A stretch of 64,000 bases of DNA from NCBI GenBank assembly GCA_050178035.1, contig JBFXGK010000001.1, positions 128,679 to 192,678 of the forward strand, in the 5' to 3' direction. The number at the start of each line of letters is the position of its first letter. Positions within the stretch are counted from its first letter, which is position 1. Below are positions 4,229-51,785 of this stretch, one piece after another. The stretch is from Kiritimatiellia bacterium (lineage in GTDB: Bacteria; Verrucomicrobiota; Kiritimatiellia; JAKQHR01). Position numbers and translations under genes: made by a program. The notes beneath the pieces are model-generated. The model saw only the letters and a program-made list of their open reading frames with translations, was not told where the DNA came from and did no database searches.

Positions 4229-5022
4229 TACCCGTGTGATTCGGTCGGGAACCGGCCCTGCTCGACTTCGTCCTTGTAGCTGGTCAGGGCGCGGGTGATT
4301 TCGGTGCCGAGTTCGGCGTAGCGTTTCACGAAGCGCGGCTGATTCCCATGATAGAGGCCAAGCAAATCGTGCCAGACCAGCACCTGACCATCACACCCGG
4401 GGCCTGCACCGATTCCAATGGTTGGAATATTTATCGAGGCGGTAATTTCTGCCGCCAGTTTCTGCGGAATGCATTCAAGCACCAGCGAAAAAGCTCCGGC
4501 CTCGGCCAGGTCTTTCGCGTCCTGTTTGAGCTGCTCCGCATCTTGTTCTGTTTTGGCCTGAACCCTGAACCCTCCAAAAACATTTACGCTCTGCGGGGTC
4601 AAACCAAGATGGGCCTGCACCGGGATCCCGTTGGCCACCATTCGTTGAACCAGTTCAACGCGCACGGCCCCGCCCTCGACCTTGACGGCATCAGCCCCGG
4701 CTTCTTTTAAAAACCGCCCGGCATTGATCAATGCTTCGTCTTCGGAGCCCTGATAGGAAAGAAAAGGCATGTCCGCCACCACCATGGCCTGTTTCACGGC
4801 TCGCGAAACCGCGCGGGTGTGGTGAAGCATTTCTTCCATGGTGACGGGAAGCGTTGTGTCGTATCCAAGAACAGTCATGCCCAGCGAGTCTCCCACAAGC
4901 ACCAGCGGGATGCCCGCCTCGTCCGCGATCCGGGCGGATGAAAAATCATAGGCCGTGATGCAGGCAATTTTCCGCTGACCCTTCTGGGCCTTGATCGTGA
5001 GCACTGTCCACTGTTTTTTCAT
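4225..5022 (-). CDS. panB: 3-methyl-2-oxobutanoate hydroxymethyltransferase
   Basis: ORF 4225..5073; [24 protein letters not shown] motifs. Start set to ATG at 5022 (MKKQWTVL), just after folK stop. Confidence 0.9.
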
Positions 5023-5531: not shown

Positions 5532-6038
5532 CTATTTCCCCGCTTTCTTCCCAAGCGCGTAATGCAGCAGGATCTCATCCGTTTTGTAGAGCCGCCTGCA
5601 GGCCTCGCGCGCGATGTTTAAAATCACCATGCCGAATATATCCTTGTCCGTTTTGTAAAGCGAATGGATCGCCTCGCGCGAAAGAATGATCAGTTCCGTG
5701 TCCTCCATCGCCACGGCGGTGGCCGAGTGCGGCTGAATGCCTATCACCGAGGTCTCGCCGAAGCACTGCCCCGTGCCGAATTCAATCAGTTCCATGGTTG
5801 TGCCGTCCACGTCCACCACCATCTTCACACGCCCCGACTGCACAATATAAATGTGGCTGGGCCTGCCGCCCTGCTCAAAAATCATCGTCCCTTCTTTATG
5901 GTGCATCGAACCCAGCAGCGGAAATATCCGATGCAGTTGCTCATCGGTCAGCCCGCCCAGCAGAGAAATCTGGTTGAGGATCGCCATGACGCGGCTCACA
6001 TCCAGCGGGAACTGCCTCTCCTGCTCGGAAAAGCTCAT
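5532..6038 (-). CDS. stand-alone cyclic-nucleotide-binding domain protein (no HTH)
   Basis: C-terminal 168 aa of ORF 5532..6401 from MSFSEQERQ; cNMP-binding fold signature (IYIVQSGRVKM...GQCFGETS...ATAVAMEDTELI). The upstream 121 aa of the ORF overlap dapB in another frame and are rejected. ATG at 6038, 1 nt after dapB stop. Confidence 0.7.
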   Translation of the reverse strand: MSFSEQERQFPLDVSRVMAILNQISLLGGLTDEQLHRIFPLLGSMHHKEGTMIFEQGGRPSHIYIVQSGRVKMVVDVDGTTMELIEFGTGQCFGETSVIGIQPHSATAVAMEDTELIILSREAIHSLYKTDKDIFGMVILNIAREACRRLYKTDEILLHYALGKKAGK

Positions 6039-6039
6039 C

Positions 6040-6843
6040 TTAGAGGCCCAGCACGTCCTGCATGGTATAAAGCCCAGGCTTTCGGCCCGCGACCCACGCA
6101 GCCGCGCGCAGTGCGCCCAAAGCAAAGGTCTCGCGGCTTGTCGCACGATGCGAAAGCTCAAGGCACTCGCCTTCGGCCGCAAACAGCACCGTGTGGTCGC
6201 CGATGATGTCTCCGCCGCGGACAGCGTGTATTCCGATCTGCTCACCCGGACGCTCGCCCACGAGGCCGGAACGCCCGTGAACGGCCACGCGGTTGAGGTC
6301 CCAGCCCAGCCCGTCCGCCGCCGACTTTGCCAGCGTGACCGCCGATCCGCTCGGGGCATCTTTCTTGCGGCGGTGATGCCGCTCGATGATTTCCACATCA
6401 TAGCCCTTGCCTGACAGCGCCTTCGACGCCTGTTTAACCAGGGAGAAGAGCAGATTCATTCCAAGGCTCATGTTGGCCGAAAAAACCACCGGCACCTTTT
6501 TAGCCGCCTCGTGGACCATGCCCTCCTCATCCGCCGACATGCCGGTGGTGCCCACCACCAGTGCAACTCCAGTCTGCGCAGAAATTCTTGCATGCTCGGC
6601 CGTGTTCGTATGGAAACTGAAGTCAATCATCACATCAGAAGCCCTGGCCGCAGCGGCCACGTCCGTCGTGAAAAAAACGCCCAGCTTGCCGGCCGCGCCG
6701 GCATCACTGCCAAGCGCTGTGAAATCGGGCCGCTCGACCGCGGCAGATATAGCGAGATCCTGCACAACCCCTGTTTGCACTGCACGGATCATGGCTTGAC
6801 CCATGCGTCCGCCGGCCCCAATAATCGCGACTTTTTTTGTCAT
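6040..6843 (-). CDS. dapB: 4-hydroxy-tetrahydrodipicolinate reductase
   Basis: 267 aa; N-terminal Rossmann VAIIGAGGRMG, ERHHRRKKDAPSG motif. Confidence 0.9.
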   Translation of the reverse strand: MTKKVAIIGAGGRMGQAMIRAVQTGVVQDLAISAAVERPDFTALGSDAGAAGKLGVFFTTDVAAAARASDVMIDFSFHTNTAEHARISAQTGVALVVGTTGMSADEEGMVHEAAKKVPVVFSANMSLGMNLLFSLVKQASKALSGKGYDVEIIERHHRRKKDAPSGSAVTLAKSAADGLGWDLNRVAVHGRSGLVGERPGEQIGIHAVRGGDIIGDHTVLFAAEGECLELSHRATSRETFALGALRAAAWVAGRKPGLYTMQDVLGL

Positions 6844-6856
6844 GTCTTTTCCTTCC

Positions 6857-7723
6857 TCAAATGAGGTTCACTTCGCGCAGGCAGTCCGCCAGCTTCTTCT
6901 TGAGCGCATCGCTCATCGGGCACAGCGGCAGACGGTAGACCTCCTCGATCCTGCCCATCATCGCAAGCGCGGCCTTCACCGGAATCGGATTGGTGTCCAG
7001 GAACAGGTCGCAGAACAAGCGGTGATACTTCAGATGAATCTTGCGCGCATCTTCCCAGCGTCCCGCCAGCGCATCGGCGACCATCGCGGATACCGGCTCC
7101 GGCGCCACGTTCGTGGCGACGCTGATCACGCCAACTGCGCCGACGACCATCATGGGGAGTGTCAGCGAATCATCGCCCGACAGAATCTCAATGTTGCACA
7201 GCCTGCGGATATGGCTCACGCGGTCCACGCTTCCGCCCGCCTCCTTCACACAGACAATCTGCGGATGCTTTGAAAGCTCGGCAATCGTCTCGACGGCGAT
7301 CTCGCGCGAGGACCGGCCGGGCACATTGTAGAGCACCACCGGCAGGCCGAGGTCGGCCACCGCCGAAAAGTGCGCGATGAGTCCCGCCTGGTTGGGCTTG
7401 TTGTAGTAGGGCGTCACCTGCAGCGTGGCGTCCACGCCCATTTCCTTCACGGCCTCCGTCAGTTCAATGGCCTCGGAAGTGGAGTTGGCGCCCGTGCCGG
7501 CGATGACCTTTGCGCGGCCCTTGCAGCGCATGGCGACGGCGCGAATCACCTCGAGGTGCTCGTTCATCTCCAGCGTAGGCGACTCGCCGGTCGTTCCGAC
7601 CGGAACGATGCCGGTCACCCCGCCTTCAATCTGCATCTCCACCAATGCGTCAAGCCTCTCGTAGTCCACCGACCCGTCCTTGCGGAACGGCGTGACAATC
7701 GCGGTATATGTACCTTCAAACAT
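6857..7723 (-). CDS. dapA: 4-hydroxy-tetrahydrodipicolinate synthase
   Basis: 288 aa; TAIVTPF...GIVPVGTTGE...YNKP motifs. Confidence 0.95.
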   Translation of the reverse strand: MFEGTYTAIVTPFRKDGSVDYERLDALVEMQIEGGVTGIVPVGTTGESPTLEMNEHLEVIRAVAMRCKGRAKVIAGTGANSTSEAIELTEAVKEMGVDATLQVTPYYNKPNQAGLIAHFSAVADLGLPVVLYNVPGRSSREIAVETIAELSKHPQIVCVKEAGGSVDRVSHIRRLCNIEILSGDDSLTLPMMVVGAVGVISVATNVAPEPVSAMVADALAGRWEDARKIHLKYHRLFCDLFLDTNPIPVKAALAMMGRIEEVYRLPLCPMSDALKKKLADCLREVNLI

Positions 7724-7752
7724 GCTTTGCCTCCATCGGCCTTTTCAAAAAG

Positions 7753-7829
7753 TTCCAATGATTGGAAGTTTCTTTCTGAAAAGTTCCAACCATTGGAAAA
7801 TCTAAACACGATTCCTCCAATGATTGGAA
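7753..7829. promoter_or_regulatory. array of three 7-1-7 palindromes TTCCAAT-N-ATTGGAA, 31-bp centre spacing, 30-106 bp upstream of dapA start
   Basis: Read directly: TTCCAATGATTGGAA 7753-7767, TTCCAACCATTGGAA 7784-7798, cTCCAATGATTGGAA 7815-7829. Confidence 0.5.
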
Positions 7830-7919
7830 GTTTTTACGCATTATTTTCCAGCGGCTGGAACTTAAAGTCAGCCTCCGGCCGACACCCGGAACGCTGGTGT
7901 CCTTCCGCAGAAAATCCGC

Positions 7920-7974
7920 GAAAATGCAAAATTTCGCAAAAAATTGGCATTTTTGACCGTTTTTTGCCATTTTT
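7920..7974. repeat. phased A/T-tract array, left part (interrupted by IS insertion)
   Basis: gaaaatgcaaaatttcgcaaaaaattggcatttttgaccgttttttgccattttt; T/A runs recur every ~10-11 bp. Confidence 0.5.
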
Positions 7975-9290
7975 GCACATCTGTCCCAGTATTACCGCCA
8001 CAGCATCAACTGGTTAGAAGAGGGAGGTGTTTCTGGGGAGGCGTCTGCCTGCTGAAAAGCCTGTAAAATGGGCACTTTTTCAAATAGCGAGACACTCAAG
8101 ACCTGTAGAATAATGTAGAGTGAAGCTTCTATTTTCAGCCGCTTCTTTATGATGGCGACCAGCAGATATACTGTGATCGCAATCCAGATTTGAGATTTAA
8201 CCGCATTGGGCGAGGTTCCGTAGAATGACTTGATCCGCAGATTCTGCTTGATCCATTTAAAAAATATTTCGATGTTCCAGCGGCCCTTGAAAAGTTCTGC
8301 AACCGTGAGGGGAGGAAGTGAAAAATTATTGGTAAGGAAAACCAGCGTCCGGTTTTCCTGATCACGATACTTGATGCGCCGGAGATGTTCCGGAAAGTAT
8401 CGGGCTGTCTGTGTACCCGTGAGAATGATGGTCTGATCGCAAAGGATGCCGCAGTCTCTATCGGATGGATGGGAGTAGATACGTTGGAACTGAAGATTGG
8501 ATCGGGCCCGTGTAACAAAATAGGCTTTAAGCGAGTGTAGCAGATAAAGGCGTTTGAAATCCAAATAGGCGCGGTCCATTACATAGTAGGCTCCGGGAAC
8601 CGGCAGGATGTGATCCAATACACTGGCATCACCTCGTTTGCCATCTGTAATCAGTATATATTCCGGGATATTGCCGGATAAGTTGAGAAGGGTATGCATC
8701 TTCACGGCCCCTTTGGTCCGGCAGAAATGAGCCCAAGGAAACATCGAAAGACACAGGTCGATCACCGTTGAGTCCAATGCGTATACATCGGCACCCAAAT
8801 CCGGCATCAGCGGATCATCCGCGTATAATCGTCTGGCCTCAGGAATCAGGACGTGAGCAAAATCAGCGTAGATGCGCCAGTCCCGGGTTTCGTTCGCAAC
8901 AGAAAGATTGTTGCGCGAGACGCGACTGTGAATCCCCAAGTGGTACAGCTTGCCGCTCACAGCCCGCAAACAGGATTCGATGTCCCGCAAACTTTCACGG
9001 CAAGTCAACTGAGCAAAGGCCATCACACGGAACTGCTCAGAGCACCGGAACGTCTTCACCTTGTAATCGCCCTGATAGCGATTCACCAACGTCTGAAATC
9101 GCCACCAGGGCAACTGCTGCATCAGCTGAGAAAATACGGTTGTTCCAGAATACATAAGGTTGATCTCCTCCTCCTGATCAACCTTATAGGAAAAACCAAT
9201 TTCAAGTCGGAAAGGATGTAATATCAACACATCCTTATGATGTAACGTGCGTTATAACTATTTTATGCGAAAACGTTGGGACAGATGTGC
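7975..9290 (-). mobile_element. IS element, IS4-family-like, ~1.3 kb, with terminal inverted repeats and flanking direct repeat
   Basis: Perfect 14-bp inverted repeats gcacatctgtccca (7975-7988) and tgggacagatgtgc (9277-9290); flanking direct repeat cattttt at 7968-7974 and 9291-9297 (7-9 bp depending on exact IR end); one DDE transposase ORF inside. Confidence 0.8.
7992..9155 (-). CDS. DDE transposase (IS4 family-like)
   Basis: ORF 7992..9230; start set to ATG at 9155 (MYSGTTVFSQLMQQLP...). Candidate DDE residues in YALDSTVIDL, YVMDRAYLDF, WNIEIFFKWIKQNLRIK. Confidence 0.85.
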   Translation of the reverse strand: MYSGTTVFSQLMQQLPWWRFQTLVNRYQGDYKVKTFRCSEQFRVMAFAQLTCRESLRDIESCLRAVSGKLYHLGIHSRVSRNNLSVANETRDWRIYADFAHVLIPEARRLYADDPLMPDLGADVYALDSTVIDLCLSMFPWAHFCRTKGAVKMHTLLNLSGNIPEYILITDGKRGDASVLDHILPVPGAYYVMDRAYLDFKRLYLLHSLKAYFVTRARSNLQFQRIYSHPSDRDCGILCDQTIILTGTQTARYFPEHLRRIKYRDQENRTLVFLTNNFSLPPLTVAELFKGRWNIEIFFKWIKQNLRIKSFYGTSPNAVKSQIWIAITVYLLVAIIKKRLKIEASLYIILQVLSVSLFEKVPILQAFQQADASPETPPSSNQLMLWR

Positions 9291-9350
9291 CATTTTTGGG
9301 CTTTTTGGGGGCATTTTTGACCATTTTTTGCACTTTTTCGTGGTTTTCAG
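9291..9350. repeat. phased T-tract array, right part (continuation across the IS)
   Basis: catttttgggctttttgggggcatttttgaccattttttgcactttttcgtggttttcag. Confidence 0.5.
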
Positions 9351-9371
9351 GTTGATGTTTTAAGGGCTTAG

Positions 9372-10739
<1,368 letters not shown>

Positions 10740-22854: not shown

Positions 22855-22931
22855 TTCCAATCATTGGAAGTATTTCCGGGAAAAGTTCCAACCATTGGAA
22901 GTTTTGTGAAGAAAAGTTCCAATGATTGGAA
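22855..22931. promoter_or_regulatory. array of three 7-1-7 palindromes TTCCAAT-N-ATTGGAA, 31-bp centre spacing, upstream of the Cys-rich/rrf2/hcp operon
   Basis: TTCCAATCATTGGAA 22855-22869, TTCCAACCATTGGAA 22886-22900, TTCCAATGATTGGAA 22917-22931. Confidence 0.55.
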
Positions 22932-24224: not shown

Positions 24225-24315
24225 GAAAAAATTGACGAAATTCGGCCAATTTTGAGCATTTTTAGCCGTTTTTGGCGTGTTTTCGCTAATTTTGGCCATT
24301 TCGATGCTTTTTCAG
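24225..24315. repeat. phased A/T-tract array
   Basis: gaaaaaattgacgaaattcggccaattttgagcatttttagccgtttttggcgtgttttcgctaattttggccatttcgatgctttttcag; T runs every ~10 bp. Confidence 0.5.
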
Positions 24316-37707: not shown

Positions 37708-37800
37708 GCGGTTTTAACCTGTTTTTGGCCATTTTTGAGCATTATTAGCCGTTTTTTGGCCTTTTTGAGCACTTTTTGGGCATTTTTAAGAGAATTTTCA
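37708..37800. repeat. phased T-tract array (best example)
   Basis: gcggttttaacctgtttttggccatttttgagcattattagccgttttttggcctttttgagcactttttgggcatttttaagagaattttca; T runs start at about 37712, 37722, 37732, 37752, 37762, 37773, 37784, 37795. Confidence 0.55.
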
Positions 37801-44747: not shown

Positions 44748-44793
44748 TTCCAATCATTGGAAGTATTATAACGAATAGTTCCAGGGATTGGAA
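44748..44793. promoter_or_regulatory. two 7-1-7 palindromes, 31-bp centre spacing, 63-108 bp upstream of iorA
   Basis: TTCCAATCATTGGAA 44748-44762; TTCCAGGGATTGGAA 44779-44793 (degenerate left half). Confidence 0.5.
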
Positions 44794-44855: not shown

Positions 44856-46631
44856 TTGCGGCAGGATATGAAACCGACAAAAACACTGATGCTGGGAAAT
44901 GAAGCGATTGCGCGCGGCGCCTGGGAAGCCGGCGTGCGCGTGGCCACGGCCTATCCCGGCACTCCCAGCACCGAAGTCACCGAACACATCGCGCAGTACA
45001 AGGAAATAGATTCCGAGTGGTCGGTGAATGAAAAAGTCGCACTGGAAGTAGCGATTGGCGCTTCCGTGGCCGGCGCGCGCGCAGTCTGCACGATGAAGCA
45101 CGTTGGCCTCAATGTGGCCATGGATCCCCTGCTCTCGATTTCTTATCCCGGCGTCAATGCGGGGCTGGTGGTCGTGGTGGCGGACGACCCCGGACAGCAC
45201 AGTTCCCAGAACGAGCAGGACACCCGCTATTTCGGCATGGCCGGAAAGCTGCCGGTGCTCGAACCGTCCGACAGCCGCGAGTGCCGCGATTTCATGATCC
45301 GCGCGTTTGAAATCAGCGAGAAATTTGACACCCCTGTGATCGTTCGCACAACCACGCGCGTGGCCCACGCCTATGGTCTCGTGGATCATGGCGAGCGCGC
45401 TGACGTTCCGCTGCGCGAGTACGACAGCCGATTCGGGAAATACATGGTCGCGCCCGCATTCTCGCGCAAGCGCCGCGTGGTGGCCGAGGAGCGTCTTGGG
45501 AAACTGCGCGGGTTCGCGGAAACCACCGACTTGAATGTTTATGAGGAAGGCCGGTCTGATACCTGCATCGTCACCGGGAGCATTGCTTATCAGTACTGCA
45601 AGGAAGTCATGCCCGAGGCCGGTTTCTGCAAACTGGGGCTTTCGTATCCCCTGCCCGAAAAGAAGCTGAAAGATTTCTGCAGACGGTACCAGCAGGTTTT
45701 CGTTGTTGAGGAACTGGAACCCATTTTCGAAAACCACCTGAAGACGCTCGGAATCCCAGTGATTGGAAAAGATAAAGTTCCAATCATTGGAGAATTGAGC
45801 ACGGAGATCGTCCGAAAGGCGCTGACCGGGATTGCTCCGAAGCCGGCAGCATCCCAATTTGAAAACCTTCCTGTTCGTCCTCCGGTGCTCTGCCCCGGAT
45901 GCCATCACCGCGGACCGTTCTATGTGATGAAGAAACTCAAGCTGAAAGTGGCCGGCGACATCGGATGCTACACGCTGACCGCCTCGCCGCCGCTGAGCAT
46001 CATGGACACCGCGATCTGCATGGGCGCGGGCATCGGCATGGCCTTCGGCATGCAGAAGGCGCGCGGAAAGGATTTCGCGGGAAAATCTATCGCGGTCATC
46101 GGCGACTCGACCTTCTGGCATTCCGGCATGACCGGCCTCCTGGACATTGTCTATAACCGCGGCATCACCACGGTTGTCATTTTGGACAACAGCATCACCG
46201 CGATGACCGGGCATCAGGAGAATCCATCCAGCGGCAGGACTCTCAGCGGAGAAACCGTGCCTGCGATCAGCTTTGCGGATTTTGCAAAATCCATCGGCAT
46301 CAGGCATGTGCGCGAAGTGGATGCCTTCAACCTGAAGGAACTCGAAACAGTCATGCGCGAGGAACTGGCGCGCGAGGAGCCGTCGGTGATCATCACCAAA
46401 CGCATCTGCATCCTGCACCCGTGTGCGGTCAGGCATTTCCCGCTGAAGGTGAATCCGGATCTCTGCAAGAGCTGCATGAAATGCCTTTCGATCGGATGCC
46501 CCGCCATTTCCTTCGACGGCGACAAGGTGAAGATTGATCAGGTGCTTTGCGTGGGATGCGAACTGTGCGCGGGCATATGCCCGTTCCATGCGATTGAAAA
46601 GCAGCCCAAACCCGACGGAGGCGAATCTTGA
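44856..46631 (+). CDS. iorA: indolepyruvate ferredoxin oxidoreductase subunit alpha
   Basis: 591 aa; TPP-binding and 4Fe-4S ferredoxin motifs (CKSCMKC...CPAISF, CVGCELCAGICP). Confidence 0.95.
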   Translation: MRQDMKPTKTLMLGNEAIARGAWEAGVRVATAYPGTPSTEVTEHIAQYKEIDSEWSVNEKVALEVAIGASVAGARAVCTMKHVGLNVAMDPLLSISYPGVNAGLVVVVADDPGQHSSQNEQDTRYFGMAGKLPVLEPSDSRECRDFMIRAFEISEKFDTPVIVRTTTRVAHAYGLVDHGERADVPLREYDSRFGKYMVAPAFSRKRRVVAEERLGKLRGFAETTDLNVYEEGRSDTCIVTGSIAYQYCKEVMPEAGFCKLGLSYPLPEKKLKDFCRRYQQVFVVEELEPIFENHLKTLGIPVIGKDKVPIIGELSTEIVRKALTGIAPKPAASQFENLPVRPPVLCPGCHHRGPFYVMKKLKLKVAGDIGCYTLTASPPLSIMDTAICMGAGIGMAFGMQKARGKDFAGKSIAVIGDSTFWHSGMTGLLDIVYNRGITTVVILDNSITAMTGHQENPSSGRTLSGETVPAISFADFAKSIGIRHVREVDAFNLKELETVMREELAREEPSVIITKRICILHPCAVRHFPLKVNPDLCKSCMKCLSIGCPAISFDGDKVKIDQVLCVGCELCAGICPFHAIEKQPKPDGGES

Positions 46632-51689: not shown

Positions 51690-51785
51690 AGGTGTTTTTA
51701 AGCATTTTCGAGCATATTTTGGCCGTTTTTTGCCATTTTTAGGCATTTTTTAGCCCTTTTTGCTCATTTTTGAGCATTTTTTAAG
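51690..51785. repeat. phased T-tract array
   Basis: ggtgtttttaagcattttcgagcatattttggccgttttttgccatttttaggcattttttagccctttttgctcatttttgagcattttttaagccc; nine T runs at ~10-11 bp period. Confidence 0.55.

Follow-up and report, generated by a model that had tools for sequence, protein, structure and literature searches.

A 64,000-nucleotide stretch of the genome of a Kiritimatiellia bacterium (contig JBFXGK010000001.1, positions 128,679 to 192,678; this whole stretch is called the window below) carries an insertion sequence (IS) between the divergent genes dapA and eno. The IS spans positions 7976-9289 on the minus strand, is 1314 bp long and intact, and divides an array of regularly spaced T-runs into two parts. 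The genes and features of the locus, in window coordinates, are as follows.

7976..9289, minus strand: complete IS of the IS4 family with IS4Sa-like features, delimited by empty sites and by the CA...TG ends and 9-bp duplications of relatives
9277..9289, minus strand: left terminal inverted repeat, CACATCTGTCCCA on the minus strand, upstream of the transposase gene
7976..7988, plus strand: right terminal inverted repeat, CACATCTGTCCCA reading inward, downstream of the transposase stop codon
7992..9155, minus strand: transposase gene, 387 aa plus stop codon, with D128, D194 and E296 and with F289-R292-E296-K303
7967..7975: dapA-side copy of the target-site duplication, CCATTTTTG, 9 bp, defined by the empty sites
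9290..9298: eno-side copy of the target-site duplication, CCATTTTTG, 9 bp, defined by the empty sites
7910-7945, plus strand: four A-runs ahead of the T-array, on the same strand as the T-runs
7950..7974, plus strand: dapA-side remnant of the array, three T-runs
9293..9347, plus strand: eno-side remnant of the array, six T-runs spaced by 9, 12, 10, 10 and 10 bp
6857..7723, minus strand: dapA (DHDPS, PF00701), start codon 243 bp from the dapA-side duplication
9453..10739, plus strand: eno (Enolase_N/C), start codon 163 bp from the IS end; the other IS end lies upstream of dapA, about 250 bp from its ATG

The first-pass annotation had described a 1316-bp element with perfect 14-bp inverted repeats, flanked by a direct repeat of 7-9 bp (cattttt). 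The two 14-mers, GCACATCTGTCCCA (7975-7988) and TGGGACAGATGTGC (9277-9290), indeed form a 100% complementary inverted pair and are its only two matches across the 64-kb window, even with up to two mismatches allowed. However, they reach one base too far at each end, their 14th base pair belonging to the duplication as its first or last base. The true element is 1314 bp long with perfect 13-bp terminal inverted repeats, which have 5'-CA...TG-3' ends and extend imperfectly to 18 of 23 positions. Conversely, cattttt is one base short at each end, although the range given with it covers the true length of 9 bp. The two copies of the duplication CCATTTTTG are perfect; the flanks carry the repeat as ...CCATTTTT and CATTTTTG..., the filled site reading ...GCCATTTTT, then the element, then CATTTTTGG... 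In the window alone the junction is ambiguous, with the 11-mer TGCCATTTTTG present at both sides (7965-7975 and 9288-9298). We settled it as 7976/9289 because more than 20 relatives with unambiguous junctions show CA/TG ends and 9-bp duplications. The same relatives confirmed the inverted repeat while shifting the boundary of the element by 1 bp at each end, and supplied the direct repeats that had been anticipated at other copies.

These relatives cover a broad range of identity. A 59%-identical element is present in dozens of copies in long-read Bryobacterales metagenome-assembled genomes (MAGs); its ends are 5'-CAGTGCTGTCC...GGACAGCAGTG-3' and its copies are flanked by unrelated perfect 9-bp duplications, for example, AGACGATGG, CCAGGCGAT and ACCCCATAT. 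Relatives at 73-74% identity have the ends CACT(A/G)CTGTCCCAACGTT and the 9-bp duplications TTCGGAGGT, ATATAAAAA, AGAAGGATA, AATAAATAT and AATATTTAT, while those at 66-67% are flanked by ATAGGTAAT, ATAAATTCT, AACGAAAGT and ACATCGCTT, and a copy of the ISGme2 family by AGTGGAATA. For annotation of such elements, the gain is that the true ends (CA...TG) and the 9-bp duplication are now fixed.

Two copies of the 59% relative deserve a separate remark (L046/L049; Bryobacterales MAG CBDFIS010000006.1, ~966-983 kb). They are oppositely oriented, about 11 kb apart, and have the 9-mer ACTTGCGAT in common on non-matching sides, a signature of inversion by recombination between ISs.

The history of the insertion could be read directly from empty sites, which the first-pass annotation had proposed to look for in related genomes or metagenomes. 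A look-up of the exact dapA protein returned four contigs (L001-L004). One of them (L002; Logan SRR27751817) matches the window at 100% identity for 5.6 kb and ends inside the IS, so that the IS-bearing allele has been assembled twice. The other three, L001 (ENA ERZ773361), L003 (JGI 3300010353) and L004 (NCBI GCA_029559795.1), are 98.9-99.6% identical to the window flanks and are without exactly the IS plus one 9-mer. Their dapA-eno spacer of 406 bp is continuous (...TTTTTTGCCATTTTTGGGCTTTTTT...), with a single copy of the 9-mer and an unbroken T-tract array. The product of in-silico excision is the natural joined sequence of these three assemblies. The earlier proposals that excision rejoins a single T-tract array and that the element had entered a pre-existing phased array between dapA and eno are therefore borne out by naturally occurring DNA. 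Since the empty alleles are about 99% identical to the filled one in their flanks, the insertion is recent and polymorphic within one species. Taken together, the alleles are direct evidence of a simple insertion.

Filled and empty alleles also differ at two other places. Dense substitutions (AAAGTCAGCCTCCGGCCGAC vs TTTGGCCGCCTCCGGCCGGC) distinguish the IS-bearing allele from the empty alleles of L001, L003 and L004 in a GC-rich, hairpin-like segment at 7864-7885. A T/G change is present in the T-run beside the duplication (9304-9310); the spacer is otherwise identical.

Between the inverted repeats there is a single long open reading frame (ORF), on the minus strand. It would cover 7992-9230 if read from a GTG; an ATG at 9155, with GGAGGAGGAG just ahead of it, is the likely start and yields a protein of 387 aa. 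The ORF is intact and uninterrupted, fills the element and, as is typical of the IS4 family, needs no programmed frameshift. The protein matches the Pfam domains DUF4372 (PF14294; 100.9 bits vs a cutoff of 25, 4e-29) and DDE_Tnp_1 (PF01609; 96.5 bits vs a cutoff of 23, 2e-27) as well as the NCBIfam IS4 equivalog NF033592 (transpos_IS4_1; 252 bits vs a cutoff of 115). All other transposase-family models in the NCBIfam scan scored far under their cut-offs. An identical 387-aa protein is named 'MAG: IS4 family transposase [Kiritimatiellia bacterium]' at NCBI. These matches uphold the original description of an IS4-family-like IS with a single DDE transposase.

Alignment of 26 homologues shows no variation at D128, D194 or E296. 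Their spacers of 65 and 101 residues fall within the range of the IS4-family DDE hallmark, D(60-110)D(100-150)E (PMC2266710). The family signature Y-(2)-R-(3)-E-(6)-K reads F289-x2-R292-x3-E296-x6-K303; R, E and K are kept and Y is replaced by F. This position holds Y in 23 of the 26 aligned sequences, H in one, and F in the window element and its 89% relative. A target duplication of 9 bp agrees with the roughly one helical turn (about 9-12 bp) that is typical of the family. At the level of sequence features, membership of the element in the IS4 family is confirmed. Neither the protein nor a 26-sequence profile found a match among PDB sequences, and there was no detectable similarity to the solved Tn5 transposase chains in particular. 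An AlphaFold model of the transposase built with 18 homologues is of low confidence (pLDDT 44.6, pTM 0.38).

As a separate observation, F289 occurs in those array-targeting elements in which this position is readable (the window element and the 89% relative), and Y in the 81% relative and in nearly all others.

The GC content of the IS is 48.2% compared to 57.5% for the rest of the window, and lies below that of every 1314-bp segment of host DNA (median 57.5%). Perfect repeats, the intact ORF and this low GC content point to a recent arrival. It might be argued that the element is instead an inactive relic fixed at the locus, its presence and absence reflecting ancient lineage sorting. There is a single copy in 64 kb, and no second copy of the exact IS was found in the window, in the gene-position index (looked up with its own transposase and with the identical P0001) or in the metagenome scan; moreover, the signature tyrosine has been replaced. 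A relic, though, would hardly combine perfect inverted repeats and duplication with an intact 387-aa ORF and invariant DDE residues, the flanks of filled and empty alleles are about 99% identical, and the 89% relative, also with F289, sits at several different sites. We consider such a relic very improbable. As no further copy of the exact IS was found, activity can only be deduced; on its sequence the element is probably still mobile.

The target of the insertion is unusual. In-silico excision restores a site of eight T-runs (T5-6) spaced by 10, 10, 9, 12, 10, 10 and 10 bp. A-tracts recurring every 10-11 bp are a classical sign of intrinsic curvature (PMC3431218, PMC3940949), and the restored site has the corresponding features, namely, runs of at least four A or T that keep step with the helical repeat (~10-11 bp) for several turns. 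The array is thus predicted, from the phasing of its A-tracts, to be intrinsically curved DNA. The excised window contains five phased clusters compared to a mean of 0.165 and a maximum of two in 200 first-order Markov randomizations. Only four such loci are present in the window (7950-9347, split by the IS; 24250-24293; 37712-37798; 51695-51782), all intergenic, all T-rich on the plus strand and together making up 0.45% of the DNA. The latter three have a unit of approximately GSCMTTTTTK and a period of 10-11 bp. Phased arrays are a recurrent feature of the genome and may act as a curved upstream promoter element.

Judging from the ORF lists and the sequence, these three further arrays appear to lie upstream of minus-strand genes, with A-tracts on the sense strand.

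Two ways in which the IS itself might account for the arrays were considered. The arrays are not part of the IS: empty sites retain the whole array, and the arrays of different copies differ in sequence and neighbors. Alternatively, rounds of insertion and excision could leave behind 9-bp duplications and so accumulate tandem A-tract units. The duplicated 9-mer does approximate one array unit, and the spacing at the insertion point is 9 bp. The array period is nevertheless 10-11 bp, not 9, three arrays in the window are without an IS, and the empty alleles already hold the full array. In addition, cut-and-paste excision, as known for Tn5 and Tn10, leaves a double-strand break rather than a tidy footprint. 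An origin of the arrays from IS footprints was rejected on account of their 10-11 bp period and the IS-free arrays, and we regard it as barely conceivable.

Whether the dapA-eno insertion is one of a kind was addressed by comparing the targets of other copies, as the first-pass annotation had suggested. The sites counted are those of a clade with transposase identity of at least 81%, comprising the window element, an 89% element (P0003; 33 contigs) and an 81% element (P0004). A metagenome scan with a pattern specific to the ends of the window IS returned nothing; a relaxed scan admitting the 89% relative returned 10 loci, of which L097 and L103 were excluded as they diverge from the IS right inside the matched pattern. 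After collapsing identical flanks, seven distinct sites were counted, given here with the duplications in IS orientation.

Window: duplication CAAAAATGG, in an array
L085/L086/L098 and L100: duplication CAAAAAATG / CTAAAAATG (8/9), in an array
L092/L104 and L099: duplication CCAAAAATG, in an array
L089/L102 (right flank only): duplication CAAAAACAC, in an array
L090/L092 (right flank only): duplication CCAAAACGG, in an array
L105 (81% element): duplication CGAAAACAG / CGAAAATCG, in an array
L089/L094/L095 and L088/L096/L101: duplication TGTTCAGCC, perfect, not in an array and apparently within a gene

Six of the seven sites are thus in phased A5-6-tract arrays. The occupied arrays vary in sequence and in neighbors, which include an ABC permease gene, a 23S-rRNA-IVP-like gene and mreB. 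In ~100 kb of related host contigs, 0.49% of the DNA falls in arrays without an adjacent IS, and the binomial probability of at least six out of seven is 6e-14 against the genome share. Every array site has its A-run starting at the second or third base of the duplication, and in all six the A-rich strand coincides with the sense strand of the transposase (two-sided p = 0.03 for the orientation). Such a fixed register and orientation argue for site choice, beyond mere tolerance. A preference for bent DNA as a target, put forward only tentatively at first, is therefore supported by independent insertions of the 89% and 81% relatives in arrays. Overall, we consider it highly probable that the window harbors an intact IS4-family IS, recently inserted between dapA and eno with a 9-bp duplication, and that it belongs to a lineage that prefers phased, curved A5-6-tract arrays.

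In the nested arrangement seen in several metagenome contigs (L086-L088, L090, L091, L093), the 89% relative itself has an IS3-family insertion, with two rve-domain ORFs (141 and 329 aa), about 70 bp inside its left end.

A lineage of this kind could also look selective if it inserted nearly at random, or in any intergenic DNA, and if the arrays were simply neutral 'safe havens' in which insertions survive purifying selection. Unrelated or distant elements (of the ISL3 family and a second one of the IS4 family) are indeed found in or beside arrays in L090 and L092, and one clade member occupies the non-array, apparently intragenic site with the perfect duplication TGTTCAGCC. Yet, six out of seven still has a probability of 3e-7 when set against intergenic DNA only, with arrays taken as 6% of it, a generous figure (intergenic DNA is 8.3% of L001). 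Selection leaves unexplained the invariable start of the duplication 1-2 nt ahead of the A-run, and arrays that precede essential genes (eno, dapA, mreB) are hardly the most neutral of locations. This makes differential survival as the sole cause improbable.

A different possibility is that the transposase recognizes a short word (C-A4-6-T-G), or AT-rich DNA in general, with curvature irrelevant and arrays merely concentrating such words in a 57% GC genome. The duplicated 9-mers do have a common C...A-run...G pattern, and the 66-74% relatives often use AT-rich 9-mers framed by A...T (AATATTTAT, AATAAATAT, ATATAAAAA, ATAAATTCT). On the other hand, the window has 533 runs of A or T of at least four bases, mostly outside arrays, and still six of the seven sites are in arrays; beyond the A-run the 9-mers are degenerate. 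Word recognition is a serious contender, albeit an unlikely one. It may also be that a host protein bound to the arrays is what the transposase recognizes. We infer, however, that the recognized feature is the curvature and not a bound host protein.

On the reading that curved arrays are chosen by the transposase, the element would have entered by DDE cut-and-paste transposition with staggered attack 9 bp apart, presumably through a hairpin intermediate, as its family membership suggests. The lineage would capture phased, intrinsically curved A5-6-tract arrays with a 10-11 bp period, and the 9-bp stagger would bracket one A-tract unit (consensus in IS orientation C-N(0-1)-AAAA(A)-N-N-G). Pre-bent DNA is the likely attraction, because IS4-family transposases must bend their target to reach phosphates 9 bp apart. 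There is related evidence for other members of the family: the insertion specificity of IS231A involves bending of target DNA (Hallet et al. 1994, as cited as reference 21 in PMC2266710), and a hot spot of IS10 lies within intrinsically bent DNA (PMC2758499).

Several observations weigh against this interpretation. The curvature of the arrays is deduced from the phasing of their A-tracts. There are only seven sites, most of them rebuilt from short-read metagenome contigs, some of which are chimeric across IS copies, and in two cases the paired duplications do not match fully (8/9 and 6/9). Selection filters surviving insertions, and part of the enrichment may reflect tolerance and not choice. 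Both the Y to F replacement in the transposase and the missing second copy of the exact IS, described above, count on the same side. Relatives at 53-74% identity keep the 9-bp stagger, and no use of arrays was seen among them; either the preference evolved in the clade of at least 81% identity, or it shows only in array-bearing hosts, as scarcity of arrays in the hosts of the 53-74% relatives is a possible explanation of their non-use. A six-out-of-six orientation would not be expected from a transposase dimer, given that the two ends it acts on are nearly identical. The orientation bias could be intrinsic to the transposase, or it could result from selection for a transposase co-directional with the downstream gene, an arrangement found in the window, L085 and L089. 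Finally, coverage of L092 is about 1 and the same 40 bp occur on both sides of its second IS, which suggests either a graph-traversal chimera or alternative occupants of one site. Owing to this low coverage and the repeated 40-bp flank, we gave little weight to what would be three ISs in one array in L092.

The contigs concerned show the following: in L092 (1-1433, 2750-4131) and L090, the second IS4-family IS, which encodes a 389-aa transposase and has the ends CACTACTGTCCGG, and the ISL3-family IS adjoin A-tract arrays.

Tentatively, the interpretation may be extended further. It is possible, though we would stop short of calling it probable, that a Kiritimatiellia clade of IS4 elements has evolved shape-directed homing to curved arrays upstream of genes, with fixed register and orientation (the transposase running in the direction of the A-rich strand and of the downstream gene), and that this amounts to a 'safe-haven' strategy without a sequence-specific, protein or RNA guide, the arrays serving as recurrent landing pads for several IS families. 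In any case, filled and empty alleles together with independent insertions of relatives offer an unusually clear natural record of an IS selecting curved arrays in a fixed register and orientation. If confirmed, the element would be an uncomplicated system in which to study how a DDE transposase chooses its targets by their shape, and arrays upstream of eno, dapA and mreB would be hot spots of regulatory variation in Kiritimatiellia populations.

By RefSeq annotation, the nearest named elements are ISGme2 and ISPosp4. The closest named element found is ISGme2, of the IS4 family, on a plasmid of Geobacter metallireducens GS-15 (NC_007515); the label derives from the RefSeq name 'IS4-like element ISGme2 family transposase'. 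It is also about 1.3 kb long, with a single transposase ORF (389 aa, 53% amino acid identity over the full length), ends of the same type ((C/T)ACTACTGTCCGG...CCGGACAGTAGTG vs CACATCTGTCCCA in the window) and a 9-bp duplication, AGTGGAATA. However, identities of 53% at the amino acid and ~66% at the nucleotide level make the two separate IS species, and the target of ISGme2 is not an A-tract array. In ISfinder, isoforms are defined by more than about 95% nucleotide or 98% amino acid identity. By these thresholds, the window element would be a new IS species.

Among the subgroups of the family, IS4Sa comprises elements of 1150-1750 bp with CA------T ends and duplications of 8-10 bp (De Palmenaer et al. 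2008, PMC2266710 Table 1). The window element agrees with this description in its size (1314 bp), ends (CACATCTGT; C1 A2 ... T9) and 9-bp duplication, on which its provisional placement in IS4Sa is based, and likewise in having no frameshift and a DDE spacing within range. It differs in having F in place of the signature tyrosine, which is kept in 23 of 26 relatives.

IS231A of Bacillus thuringiensis, also of the IS4 family, offers a likeness in target choice, since its specificity is described, in the account given in PMC2266710, as a loose consensus combined with target bending. IS231 elements differ from the window element in their CAT ends, duplications of 10-12 bp and length of at least 1450 bp (PMC2266710 Table 1). 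IS10/Tn10 and IS50/Tn5 resemble it in the 9-bp duplication, the DDE transposase and the bending of the target at capture; their ends, in contrast, are CT or CW, and the IS10 hot-spot consensus is symmetric and not an A-tract array. The known target of IS231A is GGG-N5-CCC with A/T-rich arms, not a long phased array, and we know of no report of a fixed orientation for it. IS1397 and ISKpn1, of the IS3 family, home to REP/BIME palindromes, which are dispersed intergenic repeats, and so avoid genes. Homing to a dispersed and repeated intergenic class of DNA is what they have in common with the window element, whereas their targets are palindromes and their family is IS3, as opposed to curved A-tract arrays and IS4. 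In summary of these comparisons, the element adds one more member to a known family, and its preference for bent DNA is partly precedented by IS231A and IS10.

One further feature of the element concerns expression of the transposase.

9153..9187, minus strand: hairpin over the translation start, 13-bp stem UAUAAGGUUGAUC/GAUCAACCUUAUG, its loop containing the Shine-Dalgarno sequence AGGAGGAGGA and its 3' arm the AUG

Most of 22 folded elements of the IS group (including L005-L084, L085, L105, L106 and L126) have start-region hairpins of unrelated stem sequence. They lie in the same place, immediately ahead of the transposase ATG, and in most cases the Shine-Dalgarno sequence is part of the 3' arm. 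Conservation of the structure suggests translational occlusion of the transposase. In IS10 and IS50, mRNA secondary structure restricts translation of the transposase, and by analogy the start-codon hairpin probably limits translation here as well. A sigma-70 and terminator scan of 7650-9500 revealed no outward sigma-70-like promoter at the IS ends; within the transposase gene, it found one promoter-like site where 2.6 would be expected.

The consequences for the neighboring genes are probably mild. Both are essential-type genes that keep their proximal upstream DNA, and the filled allele has been assembled twice, which argues for a tolerable effect. Each gene retains at least 160 bp of native upstream DNA; on the dapA side this includes three T-runs, four A-runs and four palindromes, and on the eno side six T-runs. 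No recognizable sigma-70-like promoter for eno or dapA was found in 7650-9500. With E-values up to 1 allowed, Rfam models gave two chance-level matches in 7600-9560 and no riboswitch in the dapA or eno leader.

7753..7860: four palindromes TTCCA-N5-TGGAA with an exact spacing of 31 bp, upstream of dapA, outside the IS and remaining with dapA

These palindromes had been counted as a triplet, a description that has to be replaced: there are four sites with 31-bp spacing, and the motif is dispersed through the window. Allowing one mismatch, TTCCA-N5-TGGAA (mostly TTCCAAYNATTGGAA) occurs 16 times in the window compared to 2.3 expected. Sets with 31-bp spacing include, besides the four upstream of dapA, three sites at 22855-22931 and two at 44748-44793, and further sites are at 4413 and 45754-45792. 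The motif has the appearance of a REP-like element or of a dispersed operator array. The dapA-dapB-folK-panB gene string also codes for a 168-aa protein whose only domain is a cNMP-binding one (PF00027; gene at 6686-7192 in L001); in the window, its gene is at ~5532-6040 on the minus strand, downstream of dapB. This protein is a possible partner of the palindromic operators.

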